From an uncultured Alphaproteobacteria bacterium (GTDB lineage: Bacteria; Pseudomonadota; Alphaproteobacteria; RF32; CAG-239): a stretch of DNA of 64,000 bases. Made by a program: the position numbers and the translations under genes. The stretch covers positions 781-64,780 of the forward strand of contig CAKQUE010000001.1 in the NCBI GenBank assembly GCA_934277435.1. Direction: 5' to 3'. Positions 17,358 through 54,500 of the stretch are shown here, one piece after another (positions within the stretch are counted from its first letter, which is position 1; every line of letters begins with the position of its first letter). The notes below the pieces were generated by a model. The model searched no databases. It was given only the letters and a program-made list of their open reading frames with translations, and was not told where the DNA came from.

Positions 17358-18332
17358 CTAGGTTACTTCAGTAATAGCACGCGTATTGCCTAAACGGCAA
17401 ATTTGCACCACGTGCAGTTTACGTTTCATTTCATCAAGTGTTTGCTCAACATTTACCGTACCTTGTGTAGAAGCTTGAATACGTTTGATAAATTGCAGAT
17501 AAGCTTCTTGCGAACTTTCGGCGTGGATGGTGGCAAAACAGTTATCGTGACCTGAACCCATCAGCTGCCAAATACCACTGGCGTTACTTGTGGAAATCTC
17601 ACCGCCGATAATGGCGTCAGGCGTAAAACGCACAACCAAGTCGATAATTTTTGAATAGTCCATTTCATTAGCTTGATCGGTACGTGACATTACCAAGTGA
17701 ACACGGTTTGGATGTGGCACAATCAATTCGCGCGTATCTTCAACAGTAATAATTCGTTTGTGAATATCCAAAATCTTTAGCAGATTGTTCAAAAATGTTG
17801 TTTTACCGGTAGAAGTAGCACCGCTGACCAAAATATGTTCACCGCGCTTGATATACAAAAGTAAACGTTCGTATGCATCGTCAGGAACTTTAATATCTTT
17901 AAGAGGATTTAATTTTTGCAAAGCATGACCTTGACGCATACCATAATCTTCTAGTCCAAACGCCACATCATCAGAATGCAAACGAATTGCCAACGCCACA
18001 CCGCCGGTTAAATCTTCTTCATCATACATCACGTTACGGCCGCAAATCGCCGAAAAACGATGATCTCCCGGAATTGTGGCATAAACCAGCGGCGAACCTT
18101 GCAAAGGGTCAAATTTAAGTTCATAAGTGTTTGCAATAATATAAAGTAAATCAGTCAAATATGACTTAGATAACTTTTCATCTTTATACATAACCCACGG
18201 GTAGGCACGCTTTCCGCGCACACGCAACCAAATTTGCCCCGAGCGGTTAATTGCAACTTCCTCCAAATTATCCTGATTATACCAGTAGGACAACGGGCGC
18301 AAGACAGATTCCAAAACTGCAAAATCACTCAT
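17358..18332 (-). CDS. virB11: T4SS ATPase VirB11/TrbB
   Basis: 324 aa; Walker A GATSTGKTT; VirB11 length; last gene of the vir cluster, convergent on yihA with a 3-nt gap. Confidence 0.8.
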   Translation of the reverse strand: MSDFAVLESVLRPLSYWYNQDNLEEVAINRSGQIWLRVRGKRAYPWVMYKDEKLSKSYLTDLLYIIANTYELKFDPLQGSPLVYATIPGDHRFSAICGRNVMYDEEDLTGGVALAIRLHSDDVAFGLEDYGMRQGHALQKLNPLKDIKVPDDAYERLLLYIKRGEHILVSGATSTGKTTFLNNLLKILDIHKRIITVEDTRELIVPHPNRVHLVMSRTDQANEMDYSKIIDLVVRFTPDAIIGGEISTSNASGIWQLMGSGHDNCFATIHAESSQEAYLQFIKRIQASTQGTVNVEQTLDEMKRKLHVVQICRLGNTRAITEVT

Positions 18333-28122: not shown

Positions 28123-28869
28123 TTAATCTTTTAATTGCTTGGTTCCGTATGAAATAACTTTAAATCCGACCGGATTTTTTAATCTTTCTTTGTATTGAAC
28201 TCTTCTTGGTTGATATTGCACCTTCAAACTTGCGCGATAACGAATTGTCCGCGGTTTATATGAAGAAGGCAAATAATAATCAACACTGTATTCAACTTGC
28301 CATGTTCCTTCTTCAATTTCATTCACAGTCAGAATTTTAACCGAACTGGTCAAGCCGTCTTGTTTCATACGCTGCATGAGCTTACGACCAGTGTTTTTTA
28401 AAAAATCCTGATATACAATGGAAGAAGACATTTCTTGCAAATCGCCGCCGTTTTGCCAGCGGGCTTCCATTTCTTCAGTGTCTGCCAATAAAGTAGTACG
28501 CAGCAAAATATATTCACGAATAAATGTTTCAGTAATTGCTTTTTCAGAATCCATATTTCGAGTATACGGAATAATACGGTATACTTGCTCTTCTTTATTG
28601 CTCAAAGTCAATAAATATGGCTCAACACGGTATAAAGGAACAATGTTTGAAATCGTCAAAAGCAAAATCATATTACAGCAAAGGCTGATAGCCGTCACAA
28701 CGGCAAAGGCTCGAGCTGTCCACAAATATCTTTTTTCACTGGCATTTACCACCAAACTATTTTCATTGCGGTTAACTCGGCGCGCTCCGGTACGCATTCC
28801 GGTTCTGACCTGTGAACCTGAATTCAAGAGCTTTTGCTGTGTGCTATTTATACCTAATTGATCAGCCAT
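28123..28869 (-). CDS. virB8: VirB8/TrbF family protein (paralog 2)
   Basis: Bitopic (TM AFAVVTAISLCCNMILLLTI); NTF2-like periplasmic domain with C-terminal …RLKNPVGFKVISY. Confidence 0.75.
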   Translation of the reverse strand: MADQLGINSTQQKLLNSGSQVRTGMRTGARRVNRNENSLVVNASEKRYLWTARAFAVVTAISLCCNMILLLTISNIVPLYRVEPYLLTLSNKEEQVYRIIPYTRNMDSEKAITETFIREYILLRTTLLADTEEMEARWQNGGDLQEMSSSIVYQDFLKNTGRKLMQRMKQDGLTSSVKILTVNEIEEGTWQVEYSVDYYLPSSYKPRTIRYRASLKVQYQPRRVQYKERLKNPVGFKVISYGTKQLKD

Positions 28870-28888
28870 TGATTTTCCTTAAATATAA

Positions 28889-29080
28889 CTAAATTGTTTC
28901 CCAAAACCAACTAGGCACATTTTTAATAGTTTCTATCTGCATGCAGGCGCACGGAGAAAGCTTAAGCTCATTAATATCCTTACCTGGTCCGACCGCTTCC
29001 GGTTCATAATATGAACCAAAAAGGCTGCATGCCGACAAAATCAGCAATAATCCCATTATTAATAAAATTTTTTTCGACAT
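28889..29080 (-). CDS. Small lipoprotein, VirB7-like
   Basis: 63 aa; lipobox LILSAC; position between virB8 paralogs and upstream of virB9. Confidence 0.5.
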   Translation of the reverse strand: MSKKILLIMGLLLILSACSLFGSYYEPEAVGPGKDINELKLSPCACMQIETIKNVPSWFWETI

Positions 29081-29226
29081 TTATATCTCTTTCAATTTCA
29101 TTAGCATCAGTGTATAGAATCGACTATACTTAAGGATTTTCCGAATGTCCACCATTTTTATGGTTATATTCGGGTACTCCTTTGGGAACTATATTAAAAT
29201 AAAAAGATTAAAATTGATTAAACAAA

Positions 29227-29982
29227 TTATTCACGAATCTCATCTTGGTTATATTTCAAGACCACAAACCCCAAAGGATTTACCAATCTTGTAAACACAG
29301 CGCGGCGTTCGGGAATAAATCGCGGCGTAACAGAGGCTCTCATCTTGGTCTTGGTCAAAACCAGCGAGTTTCCGTTATTCTTTTGTGAAAGAGTATATAC
29401 AGTAAAATTCACAATCCACGCCGGACTACTGTCACTTACCTTATTTAAGCTATCAATACGTACCTCTTTGGAAAAACCTTTTTCAAACATCTTATCTGTA
29501 TCTTTGGCGTTTTTACCAACAAACTCTCTATAAACCTCAGGTGTTGATAAATATGCAACAATTCCGCCTTCACCCCAACGAGTCTTCATCTCTTGTTCAT
29601 CATTTATAACTGAATTACGTATGATAACATATTGTTTTACAAACAATTCTGTCATTTGTTTGATAGACGGCATCTTAGGCGTTATAGGTTCATAGCGCAC
29701 CATCGTTTCAGAATCATTTTGACTGATAATCAAAAGTGGCTCCACGATAATCTCCGGTGATAGTCGAAAAATAACCAGTGAAGCGCTCAAGAACACCCCT
29801 AAAGATAAAACTGCGCAAAAAATAACTAACCTTGACAGCCACCTAAAATAAACCTCTTTAGCTGAACTATTGTTTATTTTATCGTCGGTGACGTATTGCA
29901 GTTTAATATTATTCTGCCCATTTTGCTGCGCGTTAGCGTCTGCAAGCAATTTTTTTTCTATACCATTATCTAATTCTGACAT
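29227..29982 (-). CDS. virB8: VirB8/TrbF family protein (paralog 1)
   Basis: Bitopic; C-terminal …RLVNPLGFVVLKYNQ; paralogous to 28123-28869. Confidence 0.7.
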   Translation of the reverse strand: MSELDNGIEKKLLADANAQQNGQNNIKLQYVTDDKINNSSAKEVYFRWLSRLVIFCAVLSLGVFLSASLVIFRLSPEIIVEPLLIISQNDSETMVRYEPITPKMPSIKQMTELFVKQYVIIRNSVINDEQEMKTRWGEGGIVAYLSTPEVYREFVGKNAKDTDKMFEKGFSKEVRIDSLNKVSDSSPAWIVNFTVYTLSQKNNGNSLVLTKTKMRASVTPRFIPERRAVFTRLVNPLGFVVLKYNQDEIRE

Positions 29983-29998: not shown

Positions 29999-32900
29999 TT
30001 ATGGATAAACCGCACAATATGGAGAATGCATTCTAGCCAATTGTTTATTCAAACTTTTTTGCCCTTCTTGGTCATATACATCTAAAACAGCCGCATCGGC
30101 TTCTGATGTTTTTATTTTTTCTTCCAGTTCAACTAAATCTTCGTCGGCAGAAATCTGAACTTTTTCATCACCGTCTTTTTCCAACACAGCAACACCATGT
30201 AAAAGTCGTTCTTTATTTGTATTCACTATTTCAGCGGTTCCCTTTATATTTCCAATCAGTTCTTTCAAGCGGCGTAAATTACCTGTTTTATGCTCTTCTA
30301 AAGTTTCCGAAGCTTTTTCATAGTCTGCGTCATTCATTAAATCAAAATCTTCGCTCAATGTATAGCCCAATTCTTCAAACATTTTACGCAAATTTTCTTT
30401 TATATCTTCAACCTGCAATTTTTGCTGAGCCACTACTTCAGCTAAAGCTTTTTCATTTTCCCTATTGTCCAGATAATCGCCAAACTGGTTAGCTCCAAAC
30501 ATTGCTCGATTGGCAATATAATAATCCATATTAAATTTAACTTCTCCACCTTTTGCTTTGTTCATATTTGCTGATTTTATCAAAGTTACAACAGCGGCAT
30601 TAAACGCAGGGTTAAATGTGAGTTTTTTAACTTTAAGCACACCTAAATTACCTAGAGAAATTGCATTTTCCTCCACTATTTGTACAATCTGTCCCAACTC
30701 ACTGGCTTCGGCCCAAGATTGTGGGTCGATGGTAGTTTTAGTGCTGAGTATCTGACTTTCAGCAGCCTCAACATCTGTTACGGCAGATTTGCCTTTGATT
30801 TTTTCGGCAGACAAATTCACACAATTCTTACTGTCTGGCAGAGGCTTTGCCAGCAGATATTCATTTTTCAAAGCAGCAACATATTTTCCATCTTCTATTT
30901 TGCATGGATATTGACCTGCTGACCAAAAAACATCGGTACTCTTGTCGCCGGTTAAAAACTCTTCCAGATTAAGCTCTTTTTCCACAAAAGGCCGCGGTTT
31001 CAAAACATTCTGCCAAATTTCCGGAATTTCAAGACCGCTTTCGCTAAAGCTTGGTCCGGCCAAAGTTATATCAGCCACATTTTCCGGAGTGCTATTAACA
31101 CCGCCTTTTTTGTACTTTAAAACAGCGTCGTAGTCATCAGTGTCAAAATGGAAGATTTCGCGCAAAGGAGCTGCTTGTAATGTAGAATTCTTTGGTGCTG
31201 TAAAATCTCTTTCTTTTTCAACAATGCCAACAAAATAATCACTATCGGCTTTTTCCTTATCTTCACTGGCGATTCTAGCAAAAACATCTTGCATTGCATC
31301 AGCAAAAAACAAACTTCCAGTCACACTGCCGGAAACGTCTATTTTCCGTAAATTTGCAAGCAACTCATTGTGTGTTTGCACAACACTTTTGTTGTCTGGC
31401 AAATATATTGAATCACCCATGCTTTTAATATTGTTATAAGCCTCATCTATTTTACTTTGCGCTTGTGTGCTGGCGGCAGTAACAATATTATGTATAGACG
31501 AAAGTATCGGCGTGTTTTCAAATATAAGTTTTATAGCCGCTTTATAAGCAGTCATTTTGCCCTCATAATCAGAAACGGCTTTATCAATGCTTTGCTTATA
31601 TTTATTTTGCGCTGCGCTATAATCTTTGATGTATTTTGCCTGCAACTCTTTGATTTGTTTATCAATATTTTCCAATTCTGCGCGGCTATTATCAATAGAT
31701 TTCTCTAAGCCACTAGTTTTAGCAGACAAAATTGTTCTTTGTTTTAGGGCTTCCGCACGTTTAACTTCACCATCTTTAATAGACGTTGAAAATGTTTTAC
31801 GCATTAAAGAAACTGAGGTACCGCGTTCAAGCTTACTGCCATAGTCAAGCGCATCTTCAGATTTTGGAGTAGAAACCTCTGTATCGCCTATTACATCGTT
31901 ATGAGCATTCAATTCATCTCTTGTATCACTTAGTGTGACACTGTCAGCATCCATCTTTGCATAAACAGATGTTTTATGGTTTTGCAAAGATTTTAAACTT
32001 GCTCTATATGTATTAGTAAGTTTATCCAAGCTTTTTTGTTCTTCTTCCAACAATTTATCAATTTCTTCAGTTGTCGGGCCTGCTTTTATGAGAGAACTTA
32101 ATTTATTTATGCTATTTTTGTTCTCTTGTCTTTGCTGAGCGGCAGTTTTGATTATCTTGCCTTTACCATCAGTAATATCCTTATATTGTTTCTTATCGTT
32201 AAACGAAGTAACATTAGATAACAGAAGTGAAAGTAGGTGCGTTTCATCAACATAGTTTTTCATATTTTCATATTTACCAGAAAGATACGCGTCATAAAAA
32301 TGTTTTTGGTCATTCCAAACATCACGCTTGCCGGTCATTGCGCCAAAATCCGATTTACCATTAATAGCGTCACTATTAATTTTGGCTGAAACTTCAGCAC
32401 CAATAGTCCAATTAACCAACGCGTTTTTTCTGGATTCCGCATACATGTCGTCTTCTGTTGAAGGCTTTTTATAAGTTTTAACATTTTTACCTTTGGAATC
32501 TTTTTGAGAAGCAGCTTCTTCATTTTTATTTATATCATCTACTGAGGCTGCTTGGGTTACACTTTGATCAATTTCTTCCGAAATATAAATAGAATCTTCC
32601 TGATTTCCATCTTGGTCTTTAGATGTTGTTGCTTCATACACATCTTCTTGTTCATTACTTTCTTCAGTCTGAAACTCTTCATACAGTTTCATCAGCCAAG
32701 CCTGTATTCCTTTGTCCGATGATGTTTTATACAAAGTACCGTTTTTAGTTTCTGCGGTTTTGATAGCTGTGGCTTTAACAAATTTTTTCCCGTTCCAAGC
32801 TTCTGAACTATCCTTATAATATCTAGACAAATATCCCATAACACAGCTTTCAGATTCATTTAGATATTGTTTAGCTCGATTATGATGCTTCATCATTTCA

Positions 32901-33967
32901 TGATATGTTTTGAACACTTCTTTATATTTAGGCAATAATTGTTTATAGTTATGAGCAATCACTGCCTGATTCAAATTATCATTTGCATCAGAAATTATTT
33001 CCAAGCTTTCAAATTCAGTCTCTTTTCCTTCTACTGGAGATTGCAAACCGGCGCCTGACAAATCATCAAACAAACTGTCATCTGTAGAAGCCGAAGCAAT
33101 GGTCGTTACTTCATGATATGAGGCAACATTAGTTTTGCTATTCAAATATATTTCAGCCGAACTTCTTTTTTGTTTTCCAGATGCGTTTTCAGCATCATAC
33201 TCCAAAACTTGCGCATTGCCATTTATATTTTTAATTGCATCATATTGAGCATTCATAGCATTTAGAAACAATGTATAGCGCATAATTTTATCATATATTC
33301 TAACTGCGGTTAAAGCGTTACGCCATAAACAAACCTTATCTTCTTTGCCTTCTTTCTGACAATTATATTCTTCCAACCCTTCTTCAGAACAATCTTGACC
33401 GGCAACCAAACATTTTTCGATATTATCCAGCTGTGCCAACATAGTACGCAGTTCTTTATTCATCTCTCGAGCGGTGATATACATCTCCATCGTACTATCC
33501 ATTTTTAACTGGCGCGCATTATCATCATAACGACTTTTTACACCACCATTTTTAGATGGATATTGCAAAAACAATTTGATAAAGGCTTCTTGCACCTTCC
33601 CTTCATCTTCTATTTTATCGGCCGTAGTTTTTAGACTGTCTTCAATTGTTCGCGAATAAGAAACAACTTTTTTACGCTTACTAAGACTTTGACGCAAAGA
33701 GTTAAATTTACTTTTTCCTAAATCAACAGCATATCCTTTTGCCGACTGAGTAACCATGGTCACCAAATTAGTACCATTAAAATTTTGCCGTACCTGCTCA
33801 ACTTGGGCAATTGTGGTGGTTAACGTACTGATTGTGGCTGGAGTACATTGAAAGCACAGCTGAGGAGCCATCGGCAGCAATGGAGTATAATCTGGCCAGA
33901 CCGCAAAAGCAGGGCGATTGACTAATAAGCTGCTAAAAAAAGCTAAAATATAAATAATTTTTTTCAT
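29999..33967 (-). CDS. Giant (~1320 aa) secreted coiled-coil-rich protein of unknown function in the VirB5/VirB6 slot
   Basis: Start placed at MKKIIYILAFFSSLLVNRPAFA (signal peptide) rather than the ORF-track start at 34117; no TM helices; long Lys/Glu-rich coiled-coil segments. Confidence 0.5.
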   Translation of the reverse strand: MKKIIYILAFFSSLLVNRPAFAVWPDYTPLLPMAPQLCFQCTPATISTLTTTIAQVEQVRQNFNGTNLVTMVTQSAKGYAVDLGKSKFNSLRQSLSKRKKVVSYSRTIEDSLKTTADKIEDEGKVQEAFIKLFLQYPSKNGGVKSRYDDNARQLKMDSTMEMYITAREMNKELRTMLAQLDNIEKCLVAGQDCSEEGLEEYNCQKEGKEDKVCLWRNALTAVRIYDKIMRYTLFLNAMNAQYDAIKNINGNAQVLEYDAENASGKQKRSSAEIYLNSKTNVASYHEVTTIASASTDDSLFDDLSGAGLQSPVEGKETEFESLEIISDANDNLNQAVIAHNYKQLLPKYKEVFKTYHEMMKHHNRAKQYLNESESCVMGYLSRYYKDSSEAWNGKKFVKATAIKTAETKNGTLYKTSSDKGIQAWLMKLYEEFQTEESNEQEDVYEATTSKDQDGNQEDSIYISEEIDQSVTQAASVDDINKNEEAASQKDSKGKNVKTYKKPSTEDDMYAESRKNALVNWTIGAEVSAKINSDAINGKSDFGAMTGKRDVWNDQKHFYDAYLSGKYENMKNYVDETHLLSLLLSNVTSFNDKKQYKDITDGKGKIIKTAAQQRQENKNSINKLSSLIKAGPTTEEIDKLLEEEQKSLDKLTNTYRASLKSLQNHKTSVYAKMDADSVTLSDTRDELNAHNDVIGDTEVSTPKSEDALDYGSKLERGTSVSLMRKTFSTSIKDGEVKRAEALKQRTILSAKTSGLEKSIDNSRAELENIDKQIKELQAKYIKDYSAAQNKYKQSIDKAVSDYEGKMTAYKAAIKLIFENTPILSSIHNIVTAASTQAQSKIDEAYNNIKSMGDSIYLPDNKSVVQTHNELLANLRKIDVSGSVTGSLFFADAMQDVFARIASEDKEKADSDYFVGIVEKERDFTAPKNSTLQAAPLREIFHFDTDDYDAVLKYKKGGVNSTPENVADITLAGPSFSESGLEIPEIWQNVLKPRPFVEKELNLEEFLTGDKSTDVFWSAGQYPCKIEDGKYVAALKNEYLLAKPLPDSKNCVNLSAEKIKGKSAVTDVEAAESQILSTKTTIDPQSWAEASELGQIVQIVEENAISLGNLGVLKVKKLTFNPAFNAAVVTLIKSANMNKAKGGEVKFNMDYYIANRAMFGANQFGDYLDNRENEKALAEVVAQQKLQVEDIKENLRKMFEELGYTLSEDFDLMNDADYEKASETLEEHKTGNLRRLKELIGNIKGTAEIVNTNKERLLHGVAVLEKDGDEKVQISADEDLVELEEKIKTSEADAAVLDVYDQEGQKSLNKQLARMHSPYCAVYP

Positions 33968-33983
33968 AGTCCGCTCCTTTACT

Positions 33984-35219
33984 TTAAAAACCCTGCCAAC
34001 CGCTGATAGAGTCTTGTAATTTGTCGTTAACTGTATCTCGCAAACTCTTCTTTTTGTAGATATACTCGTCCAAATTAAACTTAGTGACATCTTGTTTGGT
34101 ATTTTTGAATTTATCATTCCAGCTATTAATCTCGACCATGCTGGTAAATCTCATTTCTGCCAACAATAATTCCAAGTAACGAGCTGCCAATTTGGCATTT
34201 TGCACGTCTGCCCCTATTTTTGCCGCCATACCACCAAGCTGACCATCAACTTTGGTGGTTTGCTCCAAATAAGCCTCAGATTTCTTTTCAAACTCTTCAC
34301 CTTTTACGGCGCCCACAACAAGAACCCTCATTAAATTTTGCAAAGCTTTATAGTATTCTTGTTGACGTTTTGTCCTAACTCGGGCAATACTTTTGGAGCC
34401 GATATATTCATATTTGCCAACAAAAAATTCCGCTATATCTGCGCCATACATATCTTCAAGCTGTTGTTGTTCTTCTTGAGCCTCAATGTCTTCTTCGTCT
34501 TTTTTGCCTGAAAACAGCGAATCTGTAACTTTATCCAGATATTTTTCCGTATTCTTACCAGCAATTGTTTGTTCCAAATCAGATACCTCCTTAGCCGCTG
34601 CCGTGGCATTTTTTTGCAGCTGTTCTGCTTTTTTATCTCGCAGAGCTGTTTGATTTTTCAAATCTTCCCTTTCAGCTTTCAACTCAGCAATTCTCTTCGC
34701 CAATTCTTCAAGTTCTTTCGCATCGCCTTTATCAGCTTTTAACCTTGCCTCCAAAATCATTAATTCTTCATCAATATTTTTTTCTTTTGCGGCGCGTTCT
34801 GTAGCCAAAGCTTTTTTATAATCGTCAAGCATAGATTGCGCCATTGCTGCCGCTAATTGCGTATTGGCAAAATTTCGGGTTGCATTGCTAAAAGAGCTGC
34901 CCAAATCAACTTTTTCACCAGAAACAGCTTGGTTTTTCACATTATCGGAAAAATCAACAACCATACCTTCCATTTGTTTTTGTAAAATATTAAACAGAAT
35001 TCCGCCTTCTGCTCCACCGGCTTTTATAGCTTTGTCGTGTAAATGTTTCAAGGAATTGCTATATCGATTTTCCCATTTTTCTTGTTCTTTTTGAACAGAC
35101 TTACCAAAATTTTCAGCTTGGGTAAAAAAGTCCAATTTAGAAATAGCATAAGCATTTGAACAAGTCAGAAAACAACTTGCTAAAACCAGAGTAAGGATTT
35201 TTAATGACATATTCTTCAT
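33984..35219 (-). CDS. Secreted coiled-coil protein (411 aa), possible VirB5-like minor pilus component
   Basis: Signal peptide MKNMSLKILTLVLASCFLTCSNAYA; strongly helical K/E/A-rich. Confidence 0.4.
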   Translation of the reverse strand: MKNMSLKILTLVLASCFLTCSNAYAISKLDFFTQAENFGKSVQKEQEKWENRYSNSLKHLHDKAIKAGGAEGGILFNILQKQMEGMVVDFSDNVKNQAVSGEKVDLGSSFSNATRNFANTQLAAAMAQSMLDDYKKALATERAAKEKNIDEELMILEARLKADKGDAKELEELAKRIAELKAEREDLKNQTALRDKKAEQLQKNATAAAKEVSDLEQTIAGKNTEKYLDKVTDSLFSGKKDEEDIEAQEEQQQLEDMYGADIAEFFVGKYEYIGSKSIARVRTKRQQEYYKALQNLMRVLVVGAVKGEEFEKKSEAYLEQTTKVDGQLGGMAAKIGADVQNAKLAARYLELLLAEMRFTSMVEINSWNDKFKNTKQDVTKFNLDEYIYKKKSLRDTVNDKLQDSISGWQGF

Positions 35220-35233
35220 GGTGTTTCCTTTCT

Positions 35234-36934
35234 CTAATTATTTCCACTGTTCGGCCAAGTAGAAGTTTTTGAAGATGCCCCTGAGGAATTATTTCCCCAG
35301 AGTGAGAAATTCCAATTTGGTGAACTTTTGGTGTTTTTCTCATCACCTTTTGGCGCAAATGGAGGGGTAACTTGCGAATCGTCTGTTTCCTCTTGACTTG
35401 TATCACTTTCTTTGTTGGCTGGTTTTGGCTGATTTTCATGTGTCAACGGATATTCAAAATCAGAACCATCTTTTGTATCAGAGCCAGTATCAGTATCTGT
35501 ATCGGCAGAGCCTTCTGTTTTTTCATTATCTTTATTTTTATCTTCTGTTTTTACCGTGTTTTTCACATCATTATAGGCGTTCTCAGCCCCTTTCGCTGCT
35601 GCCTTCCAGTCTCCTTTGCCAACATTATAAATAATACTGTCTGAAGAGTTTGCACCTTTTTGCACACCGGACATTATATTTTTCGTTTTGTCATCCATAT
35701 AGCTTCCGCCAACACTGGTCGCTCCAGATGCCAAATTGCCGATTGCAGCGCCATAATTGCCACTTTGTACATTATTCGCAGCATTTTTACCCGCATTATA
35801 GGTCGAACCAGCGTTACCAATATAATCACCGGCCTTATCTAAGCCATAATCTCCGGCAATATCACCGGCTTCACCCAAAGCCCCGCCGTAATCACCGCTT
35901 TTAACGTCATTTATGGTTCTTTTACCTTTATCATAAGTACTGCCGGCTTTACCAATATAATCACCGGCCTTATCCAAGCCATAATCTCCGGCAATATCAC
36001 CGGCTTCACCCAAGGCACCGCCGTAGTCACCATTTTTAACCTTGCCATAGATATCCTTGCCTTTATTAAACATTTCTTTACCTTTATTTGGGTCTATCAG
36101 CAAGTCTGCACCGTTTCCGTTTTGTAAACCATTAGCCAGATTCAAAGAACTTGCTTGTTCTTTTTTAGCGGCTTCCTCTGCAGCTTGCTCGTCTTTATCC
36201 GCTCTACTAATAGACACGCCCAAATATTCAATAGATGCTTTTTGACCGTAGTAATTAGCGGTAAAGTCCAAAATAGAGCGCCAACGGGCGTTAGCTCGGT
36301 CAACGGTTTGAGTATACGACTTAGTTAAAATCGGTATAAGTCCCTCACATCTTCCGCTATCACTTTCGCTTCCGCCTTCTGTGCTGCCGCTGCACTCTTC
36401 AATTAGTTCTTTCAGCTGCTTTTCTTCTTCATCAAGTTGTTCGGTTTCATTGATGATGGAGCGACGGGTTACTAAAGCCTTTGCATATAGTATTGACACA
36501 TTCTGCACTTGCAATTTGTTTAACTTTTCGCGGCGTTCTCTGGCTTTTTGAGCATCATTATTGACTTGATTATTTCGAGACATCTCATTATTGACGGCAT
36601 TAGCTAATTCTGGAGTAGCAAAACTTCCTTTAACTTTTCCGGAAATTCCTTTTAAGACTTTAGAACGGATTATCATTTGCGGAGCATATTTAACAGCCGA
36701 ACCGATTGCCAATTTTTGACCAGCCTTTTTCAAACTCTTTAGTTTATTAGGACTGTTGGTCAATTGCTGCATATCAAGCTCTTTACCCGTATAATTCTTG
36801 ATAATGGTGTTTATTTGCTCCTGATAAGTAGTCAGTTGATCTTGAATAAAAGTGGTCGGATCAAAGTCTGCAAAAGAAGCATAAGGAAACAGAGCTATAA
36901 TAGCACTGCAAACTACAGTTATTTTTATTCTCAT
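35234..36934 (-). CDS. Secreted protein (566 aa) with internal 45-aa tandem repeat (GDYGGALGEAGDIAGDYGLDKAGDYIG…) and S/T/D/N-rich tail
   Basis: Signal peptide; repeated block seen at protein and DNA level. Confidence 0.45.
   Translation of the reverse strand: MRIKITVVCSAIIALFPYASFADFDPTTFIQDQLTTYQEQINTIIKNYTGKELDMQQLTNSPNKLKSLKKAGQKLAIGSAVKYAPQMIIRSKVLKGISGKVKGSFATPELANAVNNEMSRNNQVNNDAQKARERREKLNKLQVQNVSILYAKALVTRRSIINETEQLDEEEKQLKELIEECSGSTEGGSESDSGRCEGLIPILTKSYTQTVDRANARWRSILDFTANYYGQKASIEYLGVSISRADKDEQAAEEAAKKEQASSLNLANGLQNGNGADLLIDPNKGKEMFNKGKDIYGKVKNGDYGGALGEAGDIAGDYGLDKAGDYIGKAGSTYDKGKRTINDVKSGDYGGALGEAGDIAGDYGLDKAGDYIGNAGSTYNAGKNAANNVQSGNYGAAIGNLASGATSVGGSYMDDKTKNIMSGVQKGANSSDSIIYNVGKGDWKAAAKGAENAYNDVKNTVKTEDKNKDNEKTEGSADTDTDTGSDTKDGSDFEYPLTHENQPKPANKESDTSQEETDDSQVTPPFAPKGDEKNTKSSPNWNFSLWGNNSSGASSKTSTWPNSGNN
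35816..36030. repeat. Intragenic tandem repeat, 135-bp period, two copies with ~80-bp near-identical cores
   Basis: accaatataatcaccggccttatc[t/c]aagccataatctccggcaatatcaccggcttcacccaa… occurs at 35816 and 35951. Confidence 0.7.
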
Positions 36935-36973
36935 TTTCCTTCTCCTCGTCTTAGACTTTTAAGTCACAATTAC

Positions 36974-38356
36974 TTAATTGTTTGCTTTCTTCTTTTGACC
37001 TGTGATTACCACCTCATCCATACACCCAGTGCATTTTCCTTCTTTGCAGGCAAAAGTTTTACTTCCATCTTTGTATTTGCCGTCTGGACAAGCAACTTGC
37101 TTTGAGCCATCGGAACATACCGCGCCACTTGTTGATGCACTAAGCAGCTTATAACCACTTACCTCTTTTAGATTATCATCATAACAAGCAAGTTCCTCTT
37201 CTTCTGCACCATTAGGATCTTCATCGGCATCTAAATCCAAATTAGGTTCGCTGTCATCTTGTGGATTATCCGGTGTAACAACGATTTCTTCTACACAAGA
37301 TGTACATGTTCCGCCTTTGCACGCAATAAACGTTCTCTCGCCACTTTGATAAATACCGTCCTGACATGCTGATTCTTGATTGCCATCGGAGCATACAACA
37401 TTTCCAGACGCAGAATTTTTTGGAGTTATACCGCTAATCTTTTTTAAGCTTTCATCTGAACATAATTCTTCTGAACTTTGGCTATCTGATGTTTCGTCGT
37501 CAGTAATTGTTGATGAGGTATTGATTTCTGATGAAGATATTGTTTTATCCCCGCTTGCTGCATTGCCAGCAACCGTTGTACCAGCTGTTCCCTCTTCTGC
37601 AGTTCCTTCATCATCATTTCCGGCAGCCAAAGCCGATAACTCAATATCCTTAATACCAGATATAGCTTCATATTTTAATCTTTCAGCATAAAGGTCACGC
37701 ATTGTATTCATAACATCAGTTGAAATACTTATGGTATTGGCAATACCGACATTATCTTCGTGCTCGGTTTTGGTTTGACTGACTGCTTTTCCGGTAGAGT
37801 TTTGAATTTCTTCATAATTAGCAATGGCCGCACCTTTGGCAACCGCTTGCGACATCATAGCTTTTAGCTCTTCCGCCCGAATTTCATCCCAGTCATTTAA
37901 TCCCTCTTGGCGAATTAATGAATCTTTATTTTTTATTTTTTTTACCATCTTATTAATGCAATCATAAAGCTTTTCCGTATCTTTAACCATATCAATAGCG
38001 TTAGTTTTGCAAAAAATAGCCATAGTGTTAGGAATAACCTGACGTCCATTGACCAAACCGCTATAATTAACATCTATCTTTTCTTTTTTGGGTTTATTCC
38101 CATTGCCGGTGCCACCGGTAGCGGAACTAGATGCAGAAGTAGATGATGTTGACGAAGGAGTTGACGTCACCGGCTTAGGTTCAGAGCTAGATTCTGTTGT
38201 TGTAGTTGTAATTGTTGCCAAATCAGTTGTAGTGGTTTCTGTCGTGGTAGAAGTTCCGTTTTCAGTAGTGCTATCTGCGGCTTTAGCGTATTCAGCCATT
38301 CCGATAAGCAAAGAAGCAACGGTGGCAATTTTTAGAAATTTATTAAATGTTATCAT
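36974..38356 (-). CDS. Secreted Thr/Ser-rich protein with two C-terminal Cys-rich ~45-aa modules
   Basis: Signal peptide; poly-T/S linker; duplicated module C-SDG…AC-DG-Y–G–TF-CK-G-CT-C—E-VVT. Confidence 0.45.
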   Translation of the reverse strand: MITFNKFLKIATVASLLIGMAEYAKAADSTTENGTSTTTETTTTDLATITTTTTESSSEPKPVTSTPSSTSSTSASSSATGGTGNGNKPKKEKIDVNYSGLVNGRQVIPNTMAIFCKTNAIDMVKDTEKLYDCINKMVKKIKNKDSLIRQEGLNDWDEIRAEELKAMMSQAVAKGAAIANYEEIQNSTGKAVSQTKTEHEDNVGIANTISISTDVMNTMRDLYAERLKYEAISGIKDIELSALAAGNDDEGTAEEGTAGTTVAGNAASGDKTISSSEINTSSTITDDETSDSQSSEELCSDESLKKISGITPKNSASGNVVCSDGNQESACQDGIYQSGERTFIACKGGTCTSCVEEIVVTPDNPQDDSEPNLDLDADEDPNGAEEEELACYDDNLKEVSGYKLLSASTSGAVCSDGSKQVACPDGKYKDGSKTFACKEGKCTGCMDEVVITGQKKKANN

Positions 38357-38378
38357 CTTTTTGCTCCTTCACTATTTT

Positions 38379-39164
38379 TTATTTTTCTTCTGTATCTGTT
38401 TTAGCACCATCGCTTTCTGCTTTTTCTTCGGCTTTTTTCTTTTCTTCGGCTTGCTTTTGTGCTTCAGCACGCTTTTCTTCTTCAGCCTTTTGCTGGTCAT
38501 GTTCATCTTTCATACCTTGATAAACTTTCATACCAGATTTACCGGCGGAATCATAGAGATTTTTGCCCACTGTGGTAATAGAGCCGCCGCTTTTAATTGC
38601 GTCAGCCCCGCCAAACGCTGCGTCTGACGTGCTGCGCCCATATTTTTTCACCCAGCTGTAAGCCTGACTCCATTTACTTTTTTTAGCCTTTTCATTATTT
38701 GCTTTTTGAGCTGCATCAGCTTGTTTTTGCGCTTCTGCATTATCTTTAGCTGTCTCTTCGGCTGCTTTTGCTGCTGTTTCTTGATTTTTTTCTTTTACTT
38801 TAGCTTCTTCTTCTTTTTTCTTTTTTGTAGCGTCAGCACCGTCTTCCAAAACCTGTTTGGAATCGGCGTACATTTTGCCATATCTATCATAATCGCCACG
38901 TTCTATTTTGCCAAACAATTCGCCGGCAGCAGCAGCATAACCACCGTTTTGGATTTGTCTGATAATATTCAGATTGCTTTGGACTTCTATTTGTACTTGT
39001 TTTGCTATTTGTGATGCTTGTTTAGCAGAATCGCCCAAACGTTTCCAGTCCACTGTCGGTAGCGGATAAGCCATGCAAACGGAAGACCACATATAAATTA
39101 AAAGGCTTGCCAAGGTGCAAACAACAATATTTACTCTAAAAACTTTCATAACGTCCTCCGTCAA
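38379..39164 (-). CDS. Secreted Lys/Glu/Ala-rich low-complexity protein (261 aa), VirB5-position
   Basis: Signal peptide then helical low-complexity; immediately downstream of virB4. Confidence 0.4.
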   Translation of the reverse strand: MTEDVMKVFRVNIVVCTLASLLIYMWSSVCMAYPLPTVDWKRLGDSAKQASQIAKQVQIEVQSNLNIIRQIQNGGYAAAAGELFGKIERGDYDRYGKMYADSKQVLEDGADATKKKKEEEAKVKEKNQETAAKAAEETAKDNAEAQKQADAAQKANNEKAKKSKWSQAYSWVKKYGRSTSDAAFGGADAIKSGGSITTVGKNLYDSAGKSGMKVYQGMKDEHDQQKAEEEKRAEAQKQAEEKKKAEEKAESDGAKTDTEEK

Positions 39165-39232: not shown

Positions 39233-41662
39233 CTAGGCAATATTTAAATATTTTGTAACAAATCCATCTTCCCCATATTCTTGAATGAGTTGTTGAACCA
39301 ACAAAACATTTTTTCTTCCTGAATTGTAAATACGCAAATATTTGCCTAATCCACCTAAATTTACATCCAAAATAACCGATTCACCAGTTACTGGGCGTGA
39401 TAATAATATGGCGTACGGAAAATCGCGGTAACTTTTACCAAAAATAAAATCAAGTTCGCTTTGAGTCAAATTCCAGTTGGCGTAGTCTTCTATCTGTGCT
39501 TGCGGGTTGCGGAAAAAGATAACCGTTTGACATTGACCGCGAATAACCTCGCCGACACCTAACTTATCAACAATATTCGGTTGTTGGAAGGCGCAGAGAT
39601 AGGCTTGACGTTTTTTACGTCCCTCTTGCAAACCAATTATAAAGTAATCACGGAACATTGGGTGTTTTAACATTGGCGCCGTTTCATCAATCATAATCAA
39701 TGACGGCACACCGGTTTCACCAGTTTCAGATTGAATACGATGCATAATATAGCTGATTACCGCCGGCGCAAGGTTTTCATCTTCAAAAATATGTGTAAAG
39801 TCAAACGCCATAAAACGACGGCTCTTCAAATCCAAACTATCGTCTTGCCCATTGAAAATAGCACCATACTGATCCGGATTTACCCAACGGTATAATTCAC
39901 GACGCATATTTCCGGTTGGTGAAAAACAACTCTTATACAAGTTTTTCAACAAACGTTCTTCCGGCCGCAAATAGTCAAATGCCGTGGTAATAGCGCGTGC
40001 AACTTCTCTTTCGGCCAACGCATCGTCAACCATGGTGATAGCTTTCAACCAACGACGCAAAAATGCTCGGTTTTCAGGAGTATTTGCGCAGTCAAACGGA
40101 TTAAGCGATACATTTTTTTCATCACCGTCGAAACCTACATAAGCACCTTTAACAGCGCGGGTAAAAATTTGAGCACCCAAGTGTCTATCAAAGAAGAAAA
40201 CTCGCAAATCACCATGCCGCATAGCTTGTCCGGCTAAAAATGTGAGCAATGTGGTTTTACCTTGACCAGTAGGACCGATAATGCAACAGTGCGCCACGGC
40301 AGACTCTTCGCTGGACACATGGAATTGAAAACGATACGCTGAACCCGACATAGTTCTAAACACAGTAATAGCGCCATTTCCCCAGTCACTTTTGCTAAAT
40401 CCTTCCGCCGGTTTATCCATAGTTGTCGCCATAGCGATAACTCTTGACAAGTAGCGATACGTTCTTGGATAGGTGTCGTATGTTGGAAATTGCGTAAAGA
40501 ACACAGCTTGATTAACCCAGCCTTCTCGAACAGGTGTCACACCAAACGCGCGACAGATACGTTGTACTTCAGATTCCCCAAAATTTATCTCTTCTTTTGA
40601 TTCGCCTTTGATAATCACTGTAAACGCATATTCACACAGCGATTGATAGTTATTATCACTATCATCAATAGCAGCTAAAGCTTCGCTGTATTGGTCCGAA
40701 ACATTTTCTGAAAAGCTGGTAACACGCGACATTCTTTGTTGCTGCATCAAAAGCATACGCCCTTCCGAACGGAAAAGCGGACGGATATTTTGCAATATTA
40801 CTAGCTCGCAATCAATAGCATTCAGCGAATAAATCATACTTTCATCCATAGCTTCGCCGCTGGAACGAATACCCATAGCAATTTCATAGAGATTTTTTTC
40901 GCCGGAAAAGAAATGAATTATACCTTCCTCTTTGGTAAAATGAATATGGTCGGCAGTCAGCATCTCGCACAATCTAGCGCCTTCAACATCTCTAACCTTT
41001 GGCTCTGGTTTAGAAATAGGGCTGCATAGCCGCGAAAACAAATAAAACGGGCTATCCTCTGCCTTACTTTCAGGAGTTTCATACATTGGTCTGACACCGT
41101 ATTCACTTAAAGTAGAAAGCAAACTTTGAGAAGCGTAGTTCAAATCTTTTAAAGCGTCCTTACGGTCAATAACCGACAGAATTATATAGTGCTTGTTGCT
41201 ATACACCCTATCCATATTTTGGAACCAAATTTGCGAAATTGTGTCAAGCAGCTGGTTATTGAAATCTCTTTTTTCTTTTTCCAATGAAATTCTTTCACGC
41301 GTTGTGATAACTCGGCAGACAATTTGCATATTAGCCATATCATCAATCCACGATTTGCGAGCCTCCATCATGGAATATACTTTTTCTCCAGTGGCGGCAG
41401 ACAAATCCATACCCTCAAGTTTGAAAACACGGGCAAAAGAATTATTACTGCACTGGATAGTAACGCCATCAGACATCAGTTTGGTAAACGGTAAAAAATC
41501 TGAAACGCGAGATTCCCTTGGCTGCGGCAAAACCATTCGACCGAATCTGGTTGAAAGCAAAACCGCAAACGACGCCGCCGAAGCAATACCAATCAAAGCC
41601 ACAATTACTTGTAAGCTGTTTAATCCTTCGACAAATATACTCATAAAATCATAGTTATTCAT
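39233..41662 (-). CDS. virB4: T4SS ATPase VirB4/TrbE/CagE
   Basis: 809 aa; Walker A GPTGQGKTTLLTFL; VirB4 length and position after virB3. Confidence 0.85.
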   Translation of the reverse strand: MNNYDFMSIFVEGLNSLQVIVALIGIASAASFAVLLSTRFGRMVLPQPRESRVSDFLPFTKLMSDGVTIQCSNNSFARVFKLEGMDLSAATGEKVYSMMEARKSWIDDMANMQIVCRVITTRERISLEKEKRDFNNQLLDTISQIWFQNMDRVYSNKHYIILSVIDRKDALKDLNYASQSLLSTLSEYGVRPMYETPESKAEDSPFYLFSRLCSPISKPEPKVRDVEGARLCEMLTADHIHFTKEEGIIHFFSGEKNLYEIAMGIRSSGEAMDESMIYSLNAIDCELVILQNIRPLFRSEGRMLLMQQQRMSRVTSFSENVSDQYSEALAAIDDSDNNYQSLCEYAFTVIIKGESKEEINFGESEVQRICRAFGVTPVREGWVNQAVFFTQFPTYDTYPRTYRYLSRVIAMATTMDKPAEGFSKSDWGNGAITVFRTMSGSAYRFQFHVSSEESAVAHCCIIGPTGQGKTTLLTFLAGQAMRHGDLRVFFFDRHLGAQIFTRAVKGAYVGFDGDEKNVSLNPFDCANTPENRAFLRRWLKAITMVDDALAEREVARAITTAFDYLRPEERLLKNLYKSCFSPTGNMRRELYRWVNPDQYGAIFNGQDDSLDLKSRRFMAFDFTHIFEDENLAPAVISYIMHRIQSETGETGVPSLIMIDETAPMLKHPMFRDYFIIGLQEGRKKRQAYLCAFQQPNIVDKLGVGEVIRGQCQTVIFFRNPQAQIEDYANWNLTQSELDFIFGKSYRDFPYAILLSRPVTGESVILDVNLGGLGKYLRIYNSGRKNVLLVQQLIQEYGEDGFVTKYLNIA

Positions 41663-41950: not shown

Positions 41951-42379
41951 TTATCTCCTCCGCAATTTTTGTTTAAGTTCCAAAACAGACTTAGTATCTT
42001 TCACGGCTGAAAAAGCAACTTGGTTAATTTGCTGATAGCTTTTGGAATTAACAACCACCAAATTTTTTTTCTGAGCAGTACGTTTCACCGTATCTTGATA
42101 CTGCCGAGTCAACTGATTTTGTTCATCCAAAGCCATTTGGGCTTTATCCTCGAGTAAATCGGCTATATCATTTTCACTATTTATTACCGCGTCAGGATTT
42201 TTGGCCAAGACTTTATCTATCTCTCGTAATTTTTTTATTTTAATTGCTGTAGCGGCGTTAAGTTTATACAAATTAGAAGTTTGCTCTCCCGGAGTTGCCT
42301 GAGCTTCCTCAACATTCATATACGCCAATGCCGTATGACTTAGCAGCATAAATGAGAATATTGATAATAATAACTTCAT
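41951..42379 (-). CDS. Secreted coiled-coil protein (142 aa) between virB2 paralogs and virB3
   Basis: Signal peptide MKLLLSIFSFMLLSHTALA; helical, charged. Confidence 0.35.
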   Translation of the reverse strand: MKLLLSIFSFMLLSHTALAYMNVEEAQATPGEQTSNLYKLNAATAIKIKKLREIDKVLAKNPDAVINSENDIADLLEDKAQMALDEQNQLTRQYQDTVKRTAQKKNLVVVNSKSYQQINQVAFSAVKDTKSVLELKQKLRRR

Positions 42380-42391
42380 TTATCTACCTCA

Positions 42392-42778
42392 TTAAGGTTT
42401 ATTTCCACTTTTCGGTACACTATTTGATTGAGCGTCTCCTGGTGGAGTTGCATTTCCTCCCACGCCGTTTGTCACCACTCCCGCGTCACCACTAACGCGC
42501 AAATAATCATGAATAGCCCCTTTCAACAGTAACGTGATAATAAAAGTACTCATCATGATATAAGCCAAAGTTTTCCAGCTAACTTTATTAAAAATGGCAG
42601 CAACAGAAAACGCCAATAGTCCCAAACCGGCTACCATATAGCCAAATTTGGCCAGACCGGTTCCCATTGCATCACCAAGATCTTTTAGTCTATCAAAAAC
42701 ATCGGCATGCGCCTCTGGTATGGACGCAAAAAGCAAAACAAGAACCATAAAAAAGAGAATATTGTATTTTTTAATCAT
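42392..42778 (-). CDS. virB2: VirB2/TrbC pilin paralog 3
   Basis: Long signal peptide, two hydrophobic helices, conserved …F(N/G)K(V/F)xWKxxA… shared by the three paralogs. Confidence 0.6.
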   Translation of the reverse strand: MIKKYNILFFMVLVLLFASIPEAHADVFDRLKDLGDAMGTGLAKFGYMVAGLGLLAFSVAAIFNKVSWKTLAYIMMSTFIITLLLKGAIHDYLRVSGDAGVVTNGVGGNATPPGDAQSNSVPKSGNKP

Positions 42779-42788
42779 TACTTATCTC

Positions 42789-43151
42789 CTATTTGACACC
42801 AATTAAATCGGCACTTAGCTCATTAGCGCCAATCAAACTTGTGGCGGCCCAAGACATTACAAAAACGCCGATAGAAATAGCGGCAAACCATTTCCAATTG
42901 AAGCTACCGAACATACCAGCAATACAACAGCAGGCGATACCAATTGTTGCCGCAGGAGCTATAATCTTATACAATCCGGCAAAAATACTTTTACCGGCAT
43001 TATTTAAGGCATCAAAAGTTTCAGCTGACGCAGCAAATGCGCATAAGAATACTGAAAGGAACAAACCGATAGTATACTTATTGCTATCTAAAAATTTCAA
43101 CATTCTTATAAACATTTCATCCCTCCAAAATTTTATATTTATTTTTCCCAA
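42789..43151 (-). CDS. virB2: VirB2/TrbC pilin paralog 2
   Basis: As above (…FGSFNWKWFAAISIGVFVMSWA…). Confidence 0.6.
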   Translation of the reverse strand: MGKINIKFWRDEMFIRMLKFLDSNKYTIGLFLSVFLCAFAASAETFDALNNAGKSIFAGLYKIIAPAATIGIACCCIAGMFGSFNWKWFAAISIGVFVMSWAATSLIGANELSADLIGVK

Positions 43152-43184: not shown

Positions 43185-43538
43185 TTAGATACCAGTATTA
43201 TTACCAAGGGTATCCTCAAATTGGTTACCAACTGCATTATTGGTATTTGCAGCATAGTTAACAATAGCACCAGCGGCGGCCACAACAGCCAAACCAAAAG
43301 CCAAAGCAGCAAACCACGGCCATTTTACTTTACCAAAAATAGCTTGGAACGCCAAGGCCACCAAACCAAAACCACCAATCATAAAAATAACAAGTTTTGC
43401 GTTTGTAAACAAGTTGGCCATTTTTTTGATGGCCGTACCAAACACAGAATCAGCGGCAGAGGCATCTCCGAGCATAACAACTGTAAACAATAATGACATT
43501 GTTACAATGCTCAAAATATTTGATTTTAAAAATTTCAT
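43185..43538 (-). CDS. virB2: VirB2/TrbC pilin paralog 1 (first gene of the vir operon)
   Basis: 117 aa; …FGKVKWPWFAALAFGLAVVAAAGAIV…. Confidence 0.65.
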   Translation of the reverse strand: MKFLKSNILSIVTMSLLFTVVMLGDASAADSVFGTAIKKMANLFTNAKLVIFMIGGFGLVALAFQAIFGKVKWPWFAALAFGLAVVAAAGAIVNYAANTNNAVGNQFEDTLGNNTGI

Positions 43539-47972: not shown

Positions 47973-47991
47973 CAATTAAAGGAGAAAATCC

Positions 47992-50833: not shown

Positions 50834-50835
50834 AA

Positions 50836-52605: not shown

Positions 52606-52614
52606 GAGTGAAAA

Positions 52615-53733: not shown

Positions 53734-53746
53734 AAAGGATAGAGTT

Positions 53747-54295: not shown

Positions 54296-54464
54296 AATAT
54301 AATCATTATAAGATAAACTTGACGTCAGCACCTAATTGTGATATAGGATACTGAATAATATAGAAATGGGTTAGGTAACTAGCGCTTTTTATATTATTAT
54401 CCCCTATATTCAAAGAATCCTTTTGTTTATTAAACAAGAGGATTTTTCTTTGTATACAGAAAGC

Positions 54465-54492
54465 ACCCCGCTAAATTTTATGGTTAGCGGGG
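54465..54492. terminator. Bidirectional terminator between convergent pilus operon and PilT-like gene
   Basis: caccccgctaa-attttatgg-ttagcgggg then T-rich. Confidence 0.55.
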
Positions 54493-54500
54493 TTGATATT

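Follow-up and report, generated by a model that had tools for sequence, protein, structure and literature searches.

A stable duplication of VirB8 within a single type IV secretion system (T4SS) has been regarded as characteristic of the Rickettsiales, and its purpose has been called a mystery (PMC4676284, PMC11077975, PMC12407924). The system of these bacteria, rvh, is recognized by the duplication of RvhB4, RvhB8 and RvhB9, by a multicopy RvhB6 and by the lack of VirB5 (PMC11077975), and its acquisition has been attributed to a proteobacterial donor whose identity is not known (PMC9352585). In islet C of Rickettsia, virB9a and virB8a are transcribed in one direction and virB7, virB8b, virB9b, virB10, virB11 and virD4 in the other, so that the two virB8 genes lie on opposite strands (PMC2653234). 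The protein encoded downstream of virB7, RvhB8-I, is canonical, whereas RvhB8-II lacks the NPXG motif and forms a deviant dimer; the two are at most 19% identical, and divergent proteins of the RvhB8-II type were stated to be 'not found in other bacteria' (PMC4676284). Here we describe a pair of VirB8 genes that flank a small lipoprotein gene in an uncultured alphaproteobacterium of the human gut (GTDB lineage RF32; CAG-239). The window, meaning the whole stretch of DNA that was analysed, comprises 64,000 nucleotides of assembly GCA_934277435.1 (contig CAKQUE010000001.1, positions 781 to 64,780). The two VirB8 open reading frames (ORFs), both on the minus strand, are called B8up, which precedes the lipoprotein gene in the order of transcription, and B8dn, which follows it (Table 1).

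The VirB8 pair and the origin of its second member

The first-pass annotation of this stretch had proposed two bitopic VirB8-family proteins with a lipoprotein encoded between them, and this proposal was borne out by ORF analysis, family profiles and structural models. The two ORFs end in ...NPVGFKVISYGTKQLKD and ...NPLGFVVLKYNQDEIRE, the same C-termini quoted in that annotation. Neither copy went without a VirB8/TrbF profile match, as both exceeded the gathering score of the Pfam VirB8 family (PF04335, 23.2 bits), B8dn with 79.9 bits (E = 3.1e-22) and B8up with 51.2 bits (E = 1.8e-13). The paralogs are divergent, as had been anticipated, since their pairwise alignment gave 28% identity across 214 residues (E = 1e-29). 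Exactly one hydrophobic segment was found in each protein (residues 53-71 in B8up and 55-73 in B8dn), which points to a bitopic topology whose orientation we infer, and the AlphaFold2 models place a long helix at residues 33-74 and 36-76, respectively. Both copies carry the NPXG motif near the C-terminus, as NPLG in B8up and NPVG in B8dn.

Searches of the PDB with the single sequences produced only marginal matches (E of about 0.1 for both copies). When the family profiles were used, B8dn matched the VirB8 proteins of Bartonella, Brucella and A. tumefaciens as well as TrwG and TraE (best E = 2.3e-08), and B8up matched VirB8 structures, Bartonella and Brucella among them (best E = 6.5e-07). The AlphaFold2 models had a mean predicted local distance difference test (pLDDT) score of 77-79 for the two copies (79 for B8up) and of about 90 in the periplasmic domain, for which an NTF2-like fold was predicted in both. 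Compared with solved VirB8 domains by Foldseek, with the template modelling (TM) score normalised to the target, the B8dn model gave TM scores of 0.80-0.84 and root-mean-square deviations (rmsd) of 2.5-3.6 A against the A. tumefaciens, Brucella and Bartonella VirB8 domains. The B8up model gave TM scores of 0.75-0.81 and an rmsd of 2.8-3.6 A, with VirB8, TraE and TrwG among its targets. The R388 arches entries 7Q1V and 8RTA were also among the matches of the B8up and B8dn models.

We examined 80 species-level loci (L005-L084), 78 of which had enough upstream sequence to be informative. In 74 of these 78, B8up and B8dn enclosed the lipoprotein gene and VirB9 followed, B8up being 300-640 nt upstream of B8dn, and the same arrangement was found in four far more distant metagenomic loci (L086, L087, L088 and L094). 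The 74 loci span B8dn identities down to about 50%, and B8up was intact and full length throughout. Within each genome the two copies were 24-33% identical, while the pairwise distances of one copy across the 74 loci correlated with those of the other (r = 0.925), B8up evolving 1.38 times faster. The NPxGF motif was present in all 74 B8up proteins and in 73 of the 74 B8dn proteins, the lone exception being truncated by a contig end. The ratios of nonsynonymous to synonymous substitutions (dN/dS, NG86 method) were about 0.05 for the lipoprotein, 0.08 for B8dn and 0.13 for B8up, values that are rough because dS was near saturation (about 2). The two genes form an old pair that is inherited together, with purifying selection acting on each. 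An assembly artefact or a recent tandem duplicate was ruled out because of the 28% identity and because the same order of the trio recurs on independent contigs from many samples and in nearly all of the informative loci. The suggestion in the first-pass annotation that the divergence reflects sub-functionalisation is supported by these data, as both paralogs are maintained by selection, which fits non-redundant roles.

The alignments also delimited what the paralogs have in common. Thirty-one positions had the same residue in both paralogs at a conservation of 90% or more, including a juxtamembrane W..R, EP.L following the membrane helix, helix alpha1 (E..Y...R), D..EM..RW..GG and RL.NP.GF.V..Y. 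Positions conserved in both but different between them were few (Y/R, S/A, F/N, V/Y) and were found mostly in the linker and inside or next to the membrane helix.

To place the origin of the second copy, we ran a profile built from the two paralogs against 1.84 billion representative proteins and recovered 1215 relatives, 93 of them below 1e-30. The farthest B8up-like representatives (L086, L087 and L088) retained the order B8up, an ORF of about 60 aa, B8dn, VirB9 and a giant protein. This order was also found in L094, whose B8up had no recorded Pfam match and yet matched the hidden Markov models (HMMs) of the paralogs and carried NPYG. More distant B8dn-like representatives came from single-VirB8 loci (L089-L091) with the order VirB2-B3-B4-(B5)-(B6)-small ORF-VirB8-VirB9-VirB10-VirB11. 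The nearest named relatives, which likewise have a single VirB8, were encoded on plasmid pMVF16-3 of Microvirga sp. VF16 (32% identity, with VirD4 downstream) and on plasmids of Candidatus Paracaedimonas acanthamoebae. Because the single-VirB8 relatives have virB6, the same lipoprotein, virB8 and virB9 in succession, B8dn is the counterpart of the ordinary virB8 in position and in sequence. B8dn is therefore the canonical copy and B8up an addition just upstream of virB7.

A neighbour-joining tree (Kimura distances, 155 sequences, 225 columns, 200 bootstraps) recovered a B8up clade with 79% bootstrap. B8up grouped with the B8dn proteins of duplicated loci, to the exclusion of six known single-copy sequences, in 78.5% of the replicates, and the B8dn proteins of duplicated loci formed a group free of B8up and of single-copy sequences in 93%. 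This topology gives moderate support to one old duplication that would have occurred inside this T4SS family, after its split from the single-VirB8 relatives.

With the canonical VirB/Trw/pKM101 systems, represented by A. tumefaciens and Brucella VirB8, TrwG of R388 and TraE of pKM101, the locus shares the VirB8 fold and topology, NPxG, alpha1 and the order virB7-virB8-virB9-virB10-virB11, and the Microvirga plasmid also carries the same kind of lipoprotein gene before virB8. Those systems, however, have one VirB8, a recognizable VirB5 and VirB6 and, in Microvirga, VirD4, whereas here there are a second VirB8 upstream of virB7, five secreted proteins in the B5/B6 slot and beta-flower giants around VirB10, with no VirD4 in the window.

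The multiplication of VirB8 was not limited to the pair. Two distant members, P0297 (621 aa) and P0325 (586 aa), consist of one N-terminal membrane helix followed by three to four tandem VirB8 periplasmic domains (L097, a contig of 1.9 kb). In L095 (4228-6636), the lipoprotein gene is followed by three VirB8-like genes (277, 231 and 211 aa) and by a fragmented VirB9, which represents either a further VirB8 expansion or sequencing frameshifts. On account of the three genes of L095 and of the three to four domains in a single chain of P0297 and P0325, VirB8 multiplication appears to recur in the family.

Probable assembly of the two copies and the lipoprotein

Taking the evidence together, the explanation that we regard as probable is that VirB8 was duplicated inside this family, that both copies are assembled together and that the VirB7-type lipoprotein binds VirB9. 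Both copies would be built into the same machine, most likely as mixed VirB8 oligomers in the inner-membrane complex and in the periplasmic arches; B8dn would keep the canonical contacts, and B8up would owe its specialisation chiefly to its juxtamembrane, transmembrane and linker parts. In canonical VirB8 proteins, helix alpha1 together with NPXG constitutes the main site of self-association (PMC4676284). The VirB8 and TrwG proteins of Bartonella, which are about 28% identical and have NPXG intact, heterodimerise in two-hybrid assays (PMC4676284). As B8up and B8dn both keep alpha1 and NPXG, and as the equally diverged Bartonella proteins heterodimerise through this surface, the two copies should be able to associate, and by this analogy their hetero-association is plausible. 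The likeness to the Bartonella pair, which extends to the identity of about 28% and to NPXG in both members, has its limits, because VirB8 and TrwG belong to two separate T4SSs of one genome that are kept apart by the timing of their expression, while here there is one gene string and one system. The R388 periplasmic arches are built from trimers of VirB8 periplasmic domains (according to the descriptions of 7Q1V and 8RTA), so that there would be several non-equivalent VirB8 positions which the paralogs could divide between them.

A further parallel is found in the Dot/Icm system of Legionella, where DotI and DotJ, a related pair of VirB8-like proteins of the inner membrane, are the products of adjacent genes. 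They reportedly form one hetero-complex, work that is credited to Kuroda et al. in 2015. DotI (structures 3WZ4 and 3WZ5) was among the weaker Foldseek matches, with a sequence identity of about 10%. Dot/Icm is, however, a type IVB system, and DotJ lacks a periplasmic domain, while both copies described here are full length.

As for the lipoprotein, the first-pass annotation had placed a 63-residue protein with an LILSAC lipobox between the two VirB8 copies; it is real, highly conserved and in the VirB7 position. L-S-A-C occupies residues 15-18, and a weak match to LPAM_1 was obtained in Pfam. The gene, 19 nt upstream of B8dn, was present upstream of B8dn at every locus examined, and the lipobox was kept in all orthologs. 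The mature lipoprotein is the best conserved of the three gene products, with the consensus C-(S/G)-(LF)-GSYYEPEPVG.GK..NELKLSPCAC...P.WF..TI, in which ...LK[LKR]SPC(A)C is invariant. A homologous lipoprotein is encoded between virB6 and virB8 in the single-VirB8 loci L089-L091 and ahead of virB8 on the Microvirga plasmid, whose version (...PIGIGRSPNDLKKSPCAC...) contains DLKKSPCAC, the shared motif being LK[KR]SPC. On the side of VirB9, the Cys within RMVCLKL was 100% conserved in 71 orthologs and was also found in the single-copy outgroups. The disulfide between VirB7 and VirB9 is described for the A. tumefaciens model, and a [KI]KSP-Cys motif for RvhB7 and ComB7 (PMC2653234). To judge from its sequence, the lipoprotein would be lipidated at Cys18 and go to the outer membrane. 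Because the cysteines are invariant in both partners, and by analogy with the A. tumefaciens VirB7-VirB9 model, we propose that it holds the C-terminal domain of VirB9, probably by a disulfide between the SPC(A)C cysteines and the VirB9 Cys. In addition, VirB9 has a peptidoglycan-binding SPOR domain (residues about 496-574) after a long linker rich in Gly, Ala and Ser, which is kept in L086-L089 and absent in L090 and L091.

Besides the near-saturated dS given above, several points weigh against this explanation. The contact between the two copies, and their membership in a shared machine, are proposed and may not hold. The tree is distance-based, built on about 225 columns of very divergent sequences and moderate in its support; since B8up is the faster copy, long-branch effects could have misplaced it. 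As the tree held no Rickettsiales, ComB or Lvh sequences, a small chance is left for an ancestry shared with the rvh duplication. The lipoprotein matched no curated family (VirB7, TraN or ComB7) in Pfam or NCBIfam up to E 10, and no P[ILV]NK, a motif that inserts into VirB9, occurs in its sequence. Finally, L021, L022, L024 and L083 have a cluster that is interrupted precisely at the junction of B8up and the lipoprotein gene, the lipoprotein always staying with B8dn, and the two copies may be expressed separately through a possible promoter in the 146-nt gap at this point.

The last of these observations bears on the chief rival explanation, namely that the copies do not mix and instead form separate homo-oligomers used in different assemblies or states, or under different conditions. 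For example, one copy would nucleate a pilus or surface assembly with the pilins, VirB4 and the five secreted proteins, and the other would serve the VirB7/9/10 core. The gap between B8up and the lipoprotein gene is the largest in the string, and it is the break point in the four loci named above. In L024, from a deer-gut species, an ATPase gene whose product is 81% identical to that of the window gene at 54501-55466 abuts the lipoprotein gene (L024 8606-10750); therefore, this locus lacks at the site about 25 kb comprising B8up, the five secreted proteins, VirB4, the pilins and the type IVb pilus genes. The residues conserved specifically in each paralog belong to the cytoplasmic and membrane portion, which would touch different partners, and the two VirB8 proteins of Rickettsia did not interact in two-hybrid assays (PMC4676284). 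Against a separate use of the copies stands the presence in both of the same alpha1/NPxGF surface, with which the equally diverged Bartonella proteins heterodimerise. The gap holds one promoter-like match (TGGACA-17-TATAGT, 29151-29123, 10 of 12 positions), but the number of such matches in the region equals that expected from shuffled sequence, so that it is not enriched and was not relied on. In L088, the upstream T4SS genes are located elsewhere and B8up has remained beside the lower module, which means that B8up does not segregate consistently with one module. We therefore consider separate homo-oligomers unlikely, although they are the alternative to be taken most seriously, and continue to favour the co-assembly of both copies.

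The likeness to the rvh arrangement

The first-pass annotation had linked the duplicated VirB8 genes and their order to the rvh systems. The part of this claim that concerns the map stood: the succession of a divergent virB8, virB7, a conserved virB8, virB9, virB10 and virB11 matches that of Rickettsia islet C, and in both systems two VirB8 paralogs adjoin a small VirB7 lipoprotein gene and the copy ahead of virB7 is the one that evolves faster. The strands, the NPxG motif, the identity between paralogs, the host and the gene content, however, differ. Here both virB8 genes are on the same strand, whereas the Rickettsia copies are on opposite ones; NPxG and a predicted fold of the canonical type are retained in both copies, whereas RvhB8-II has lost NPXG; and the paralogs are closer to each other (24-33% against at most 19% in the Rickettsiales). 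The window shows no VirB6 multiplication (three to five large copies in rvh), the operon does not end with VirD4, and VirB4 and VirB9 occur once each. The bacterium lives extracellularly in the gut and does not belong to the Rickettsiales, and the nearest relatives of the system are plasmid-type systems with a single VirB8. Because the B8up duplication is placed inside this family, after the split from its single-VirB8 relatives, the likeness to rvh is most likely convergent, a view that we hold with good confidence.

The opposite possibility is that the locus is a true relative of rvh, in which one ancient duplication gave rise to both pairs, B8dn being the ortholog of RvhB8-I and B8up that of RvhB8-II. 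Besides the identical map order and the stronger conservation of the copy downstream of virB7, this idea draws on the lipoprotein, whose LK[LKR]SPC (of the form K-x-S-P-C) is close to the [KI]KSP plus Cys of RvhB7 and ComB7 and whose matching VirB9 Cys is kept, on the several VirB2 paralogs, as in Wolbachia and the Anaplasmataceae, and on the shared alphaproteobacterial host; the donor of rvh, moreover, is taken to be an unknown proteobacterium. Apart from the differences in strand, motif, identity and gene content, it faces the result that the single-VirB8 loci, such as that of the Microvirga plasmid, branch outside B8up plus B8dn. With this branching, shared ancestry would require that rickettsial proteins reach profile scores of more than about 100 bits. 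We looked up 30 representative clusters, and none bore a Rickettsiales name; few were named, all of them as 'Alphaproteobacteria bacterium' metagenome-assembled genomes (MAGs) or as generic 'VirB8'. Similarly, a search of a plasmid collection returned no Rickettsiales matches. The solved structure of RvhB8-II (R. typhi, 4O3V) fitted both models worse than canonical VirB8 did (TM 0.75-0.77, rmsd of about 5 A, 16-18% identity in Foldseek), and it was not reached by sequence or profile searches of the PDB up to E 10. A common duplication seems improbable to us. If it were true, the rvh signature regarded as exclusive to the Rickettsiales would also exist in free-living or commensal Alphaproteobacteria, and the locus would point to the lineage, or to the type of mobile system, that donated rvh to the ancestor of the Rickettsiales, in a less derived state with NPXG in both VirB8 proteins.

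That B8up is a redundant or decaying duplicate without a role of its own, as its 1.4 times faster evolution, its weaker Pfam score and its absence from the usual place in 4 of the 78 loci could be taken to hint, is already close to refuted by its intact, full-length state in 74 loci and in far more distant ones, its dN/dS of about 0.13, its invariant NPxGF and the 31 family positions that it keeps.

Gene string, host and meaning of the duplication

The trio belongs to a co-directional string on the minus strand that comprises, in the order of transcription, three VirB2/TrbC pilins, a secreted protein of 142 aa, VirB4, five proteins with Sec signals, B8up, the lipoprotein, B8dn, VirB9, a 1267-aa beta-flower protein, VirB10 and VirB11 (Table 1). 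The genes are separated by 16-19 nt, the gap between B8up and the lipoprotein gene being the exception. Housekeeping genes (rnpA, yidC, engB, degP, hflK/C, lptA/C, kdsD, uvrA and queH) were found in the flanks. The trio contributes three inner parts to one chromosomal P-type (VirB-like) T4SS of an uncultured human-gut alphaproteobacterium.

Table 1. Coordinates in the window of the VirB8 trio and of the features that accompany it
Feature	Position	Strand	Description
VirB11 ATPase, last gene in the string	17358..18332	-	TIGR02788 VirB11 3.1e-42; T2SSE 6.4e-24
VirB10	18342..22562	-	TrbI at residues 1101-1302, 4.8e-30; Bflower_2 3e-52; NCBIfam ComB10 1.6e-29, VirB10 2.6e-27
Bitopic beta-flower-repeat protein between virB9 and virB10	22562..26365	-	1267 aa; PF21785 2.7e-65, PF21784 5.1e-30; N-terminal transmembrane segment
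VirB9 (CagX) with C-terminal SPOR	26375..28105	-	Pfam CagX 2e-10, SPOR 2.4e-04
B8dn, canonical VirB8 and positional ortholog of virB8 in single-copy systems	28123..28869	-	248 aa; predicted bitopic; NPVGF
VirB7-type lipoprotein	28889..29080	-	63 aa; lipobox LSA/C; mature peptide GSYYEPEAVGPGKDINELKLSPCAC...
Intergenic gap between B8up and lipoprotein gene	29081..29226	-	146 nt, largest in the string; break point in some species
B8up, extra, faster-evolving VirB8 paralog	29227..29982	-	251 aa; predicted bitopic; NPLGF motif; Pfam, profile, fold, orthologs in 74 loci
Five Sec-signal non-membrane proteins	29999..39164	-	about 261, 460, 566, 411 and 1322 aa in transcription order
VirB4 ATPase	39233..41662	-	809 aa; TIGR00929 5.4e-115; CagE_TrbE_VirB 6.9e-15; N-terminal hydrophobic segments
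Secreted coiled-coil-like protein, not VirB3-like	41951-42379	-	142 aa
VirB2/TrbC pilin paralogs, three in tandem	42392-42778, 42789-43151, 43185-43538	-	Pfam TrbC 1e-05, 2.1e-08, 7.9e-08
Type IVb pilus cluster beside the T4SS	45560-55466	T2SSE on -	TcpQ, secretin, PilO-like, ATPase, T2SSF, further T2SSE ATPase

The three tandem pilins are divergent, the first of the TrbC matches falling slightly under the gathering score, and recall the multiplication of pilins in Bartonella Trw, Wolbachia and the Anaplasmataceae. Residues 9-38 of VirB4 form a pair of hydrophobic segments that overlap, and a separate VirB3 gene was not recognized, so that VirB4 may be a VirB3-VirB4 fusion. The five Sec-signal proteins, which gave no significant match in Pfam or NCBIfam and have hydrophobic segments only at the N-terminus, fill the slot of virB5 and virB6 in canonical loci, a layout also found in L001-L004 and L086; VirB5 (PF07996) had no match in the window. 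In VirB10, about 1000 aa of beta-flower repeats (PF21785/PF21784) precede the TrbI domain. The beta-flower fold was described only in 2023, without a function (PMC10584680). Giant beta-flower counterparts (1500-2700 aa) occur in the distant loci L086-L088 and L094, and in L094 the repeats and TrbI are joined in one protein of more than 2180 aa. The adjacency of the T4SS and a type IVb pilus cluster recurs in L090, a distant locus with a single VirB8.

No tRNA, integrase, relaxase, VirD4 or recognizable VirB6/TrbL was found in the 64-kb window, which contains only one VirB4 and one VirB9. We considered whether one of the five upstream proteins, or another ORF of the window, might be a concealed VirB6 and rejected this, as the cluster has no polytopic protein; the window's polytopic ORFs comprise a BAX-inhibitor homolog, YidC, T2SSF, an ABC transporter and an ORF of 278 aa outside the cluster. 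This last ORF (13273-14109, plus strand), with five predicted membrane segments and no Pfam match, lies between the BAX-inhibitor homolog and rnpA.

Conjugation is unlikely as the role of the system, because it is chromosomal and flanked by housekeeping genes, has no coupling protein or relaxase nearby, and includes three pilins and many large Sec-dependent proteins. By analogy, and with low confidence, we suggest that it may rather serve in the display of a surface structure or adhesin or in the export of periplasmic substrates. The former is the role of Trw in Bartonella and the latter that of Ptl in Bordetella.

A B8dn protein 100% identical to that of the window was found on 107 contigs from human-gut samples (from the Hadza and others) and in MAG UMGS1578. 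B8dn had 891 homologs in the database, and its relatives were present in 307 GTDB species, one genome being scanned per species; nearly all of these were gut or rumen alphaproteobacterial MAGs, including Candidatus Scatocola (Rhodospirillales according to NCBI). Our literature search for T4SSs in RF32 or in gut Alphaproteobacteria found no relevant paper.

The system is unusual in that no VirB6 or VirD4 is recognizable in its vicinity and that giant beta-flower sequences are fused to VirB10, and it is common in the human gut. The Rickettsiales are obligate intracellular bacteria and hard to manipulate. What our work adds is a conserved T4SS with two VirB8 proteins outside the Rickettsiales, widespread in gut Alphaproteobacteria. 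A second lineage, probably an independent one, has thus kept two VirB8 genes around virB7 for a very long time, in a chromosomal T4SS found across hundreds of alphaproteobacterial species from gut and rumen. The recurrent multiplication of VirB8 suggests a general structural reason, namely that VirB8 occupies several non-equivalent places of the machine, and these genomes offer a large natural set of sequences with which the positions taken by each paralog may be tested.

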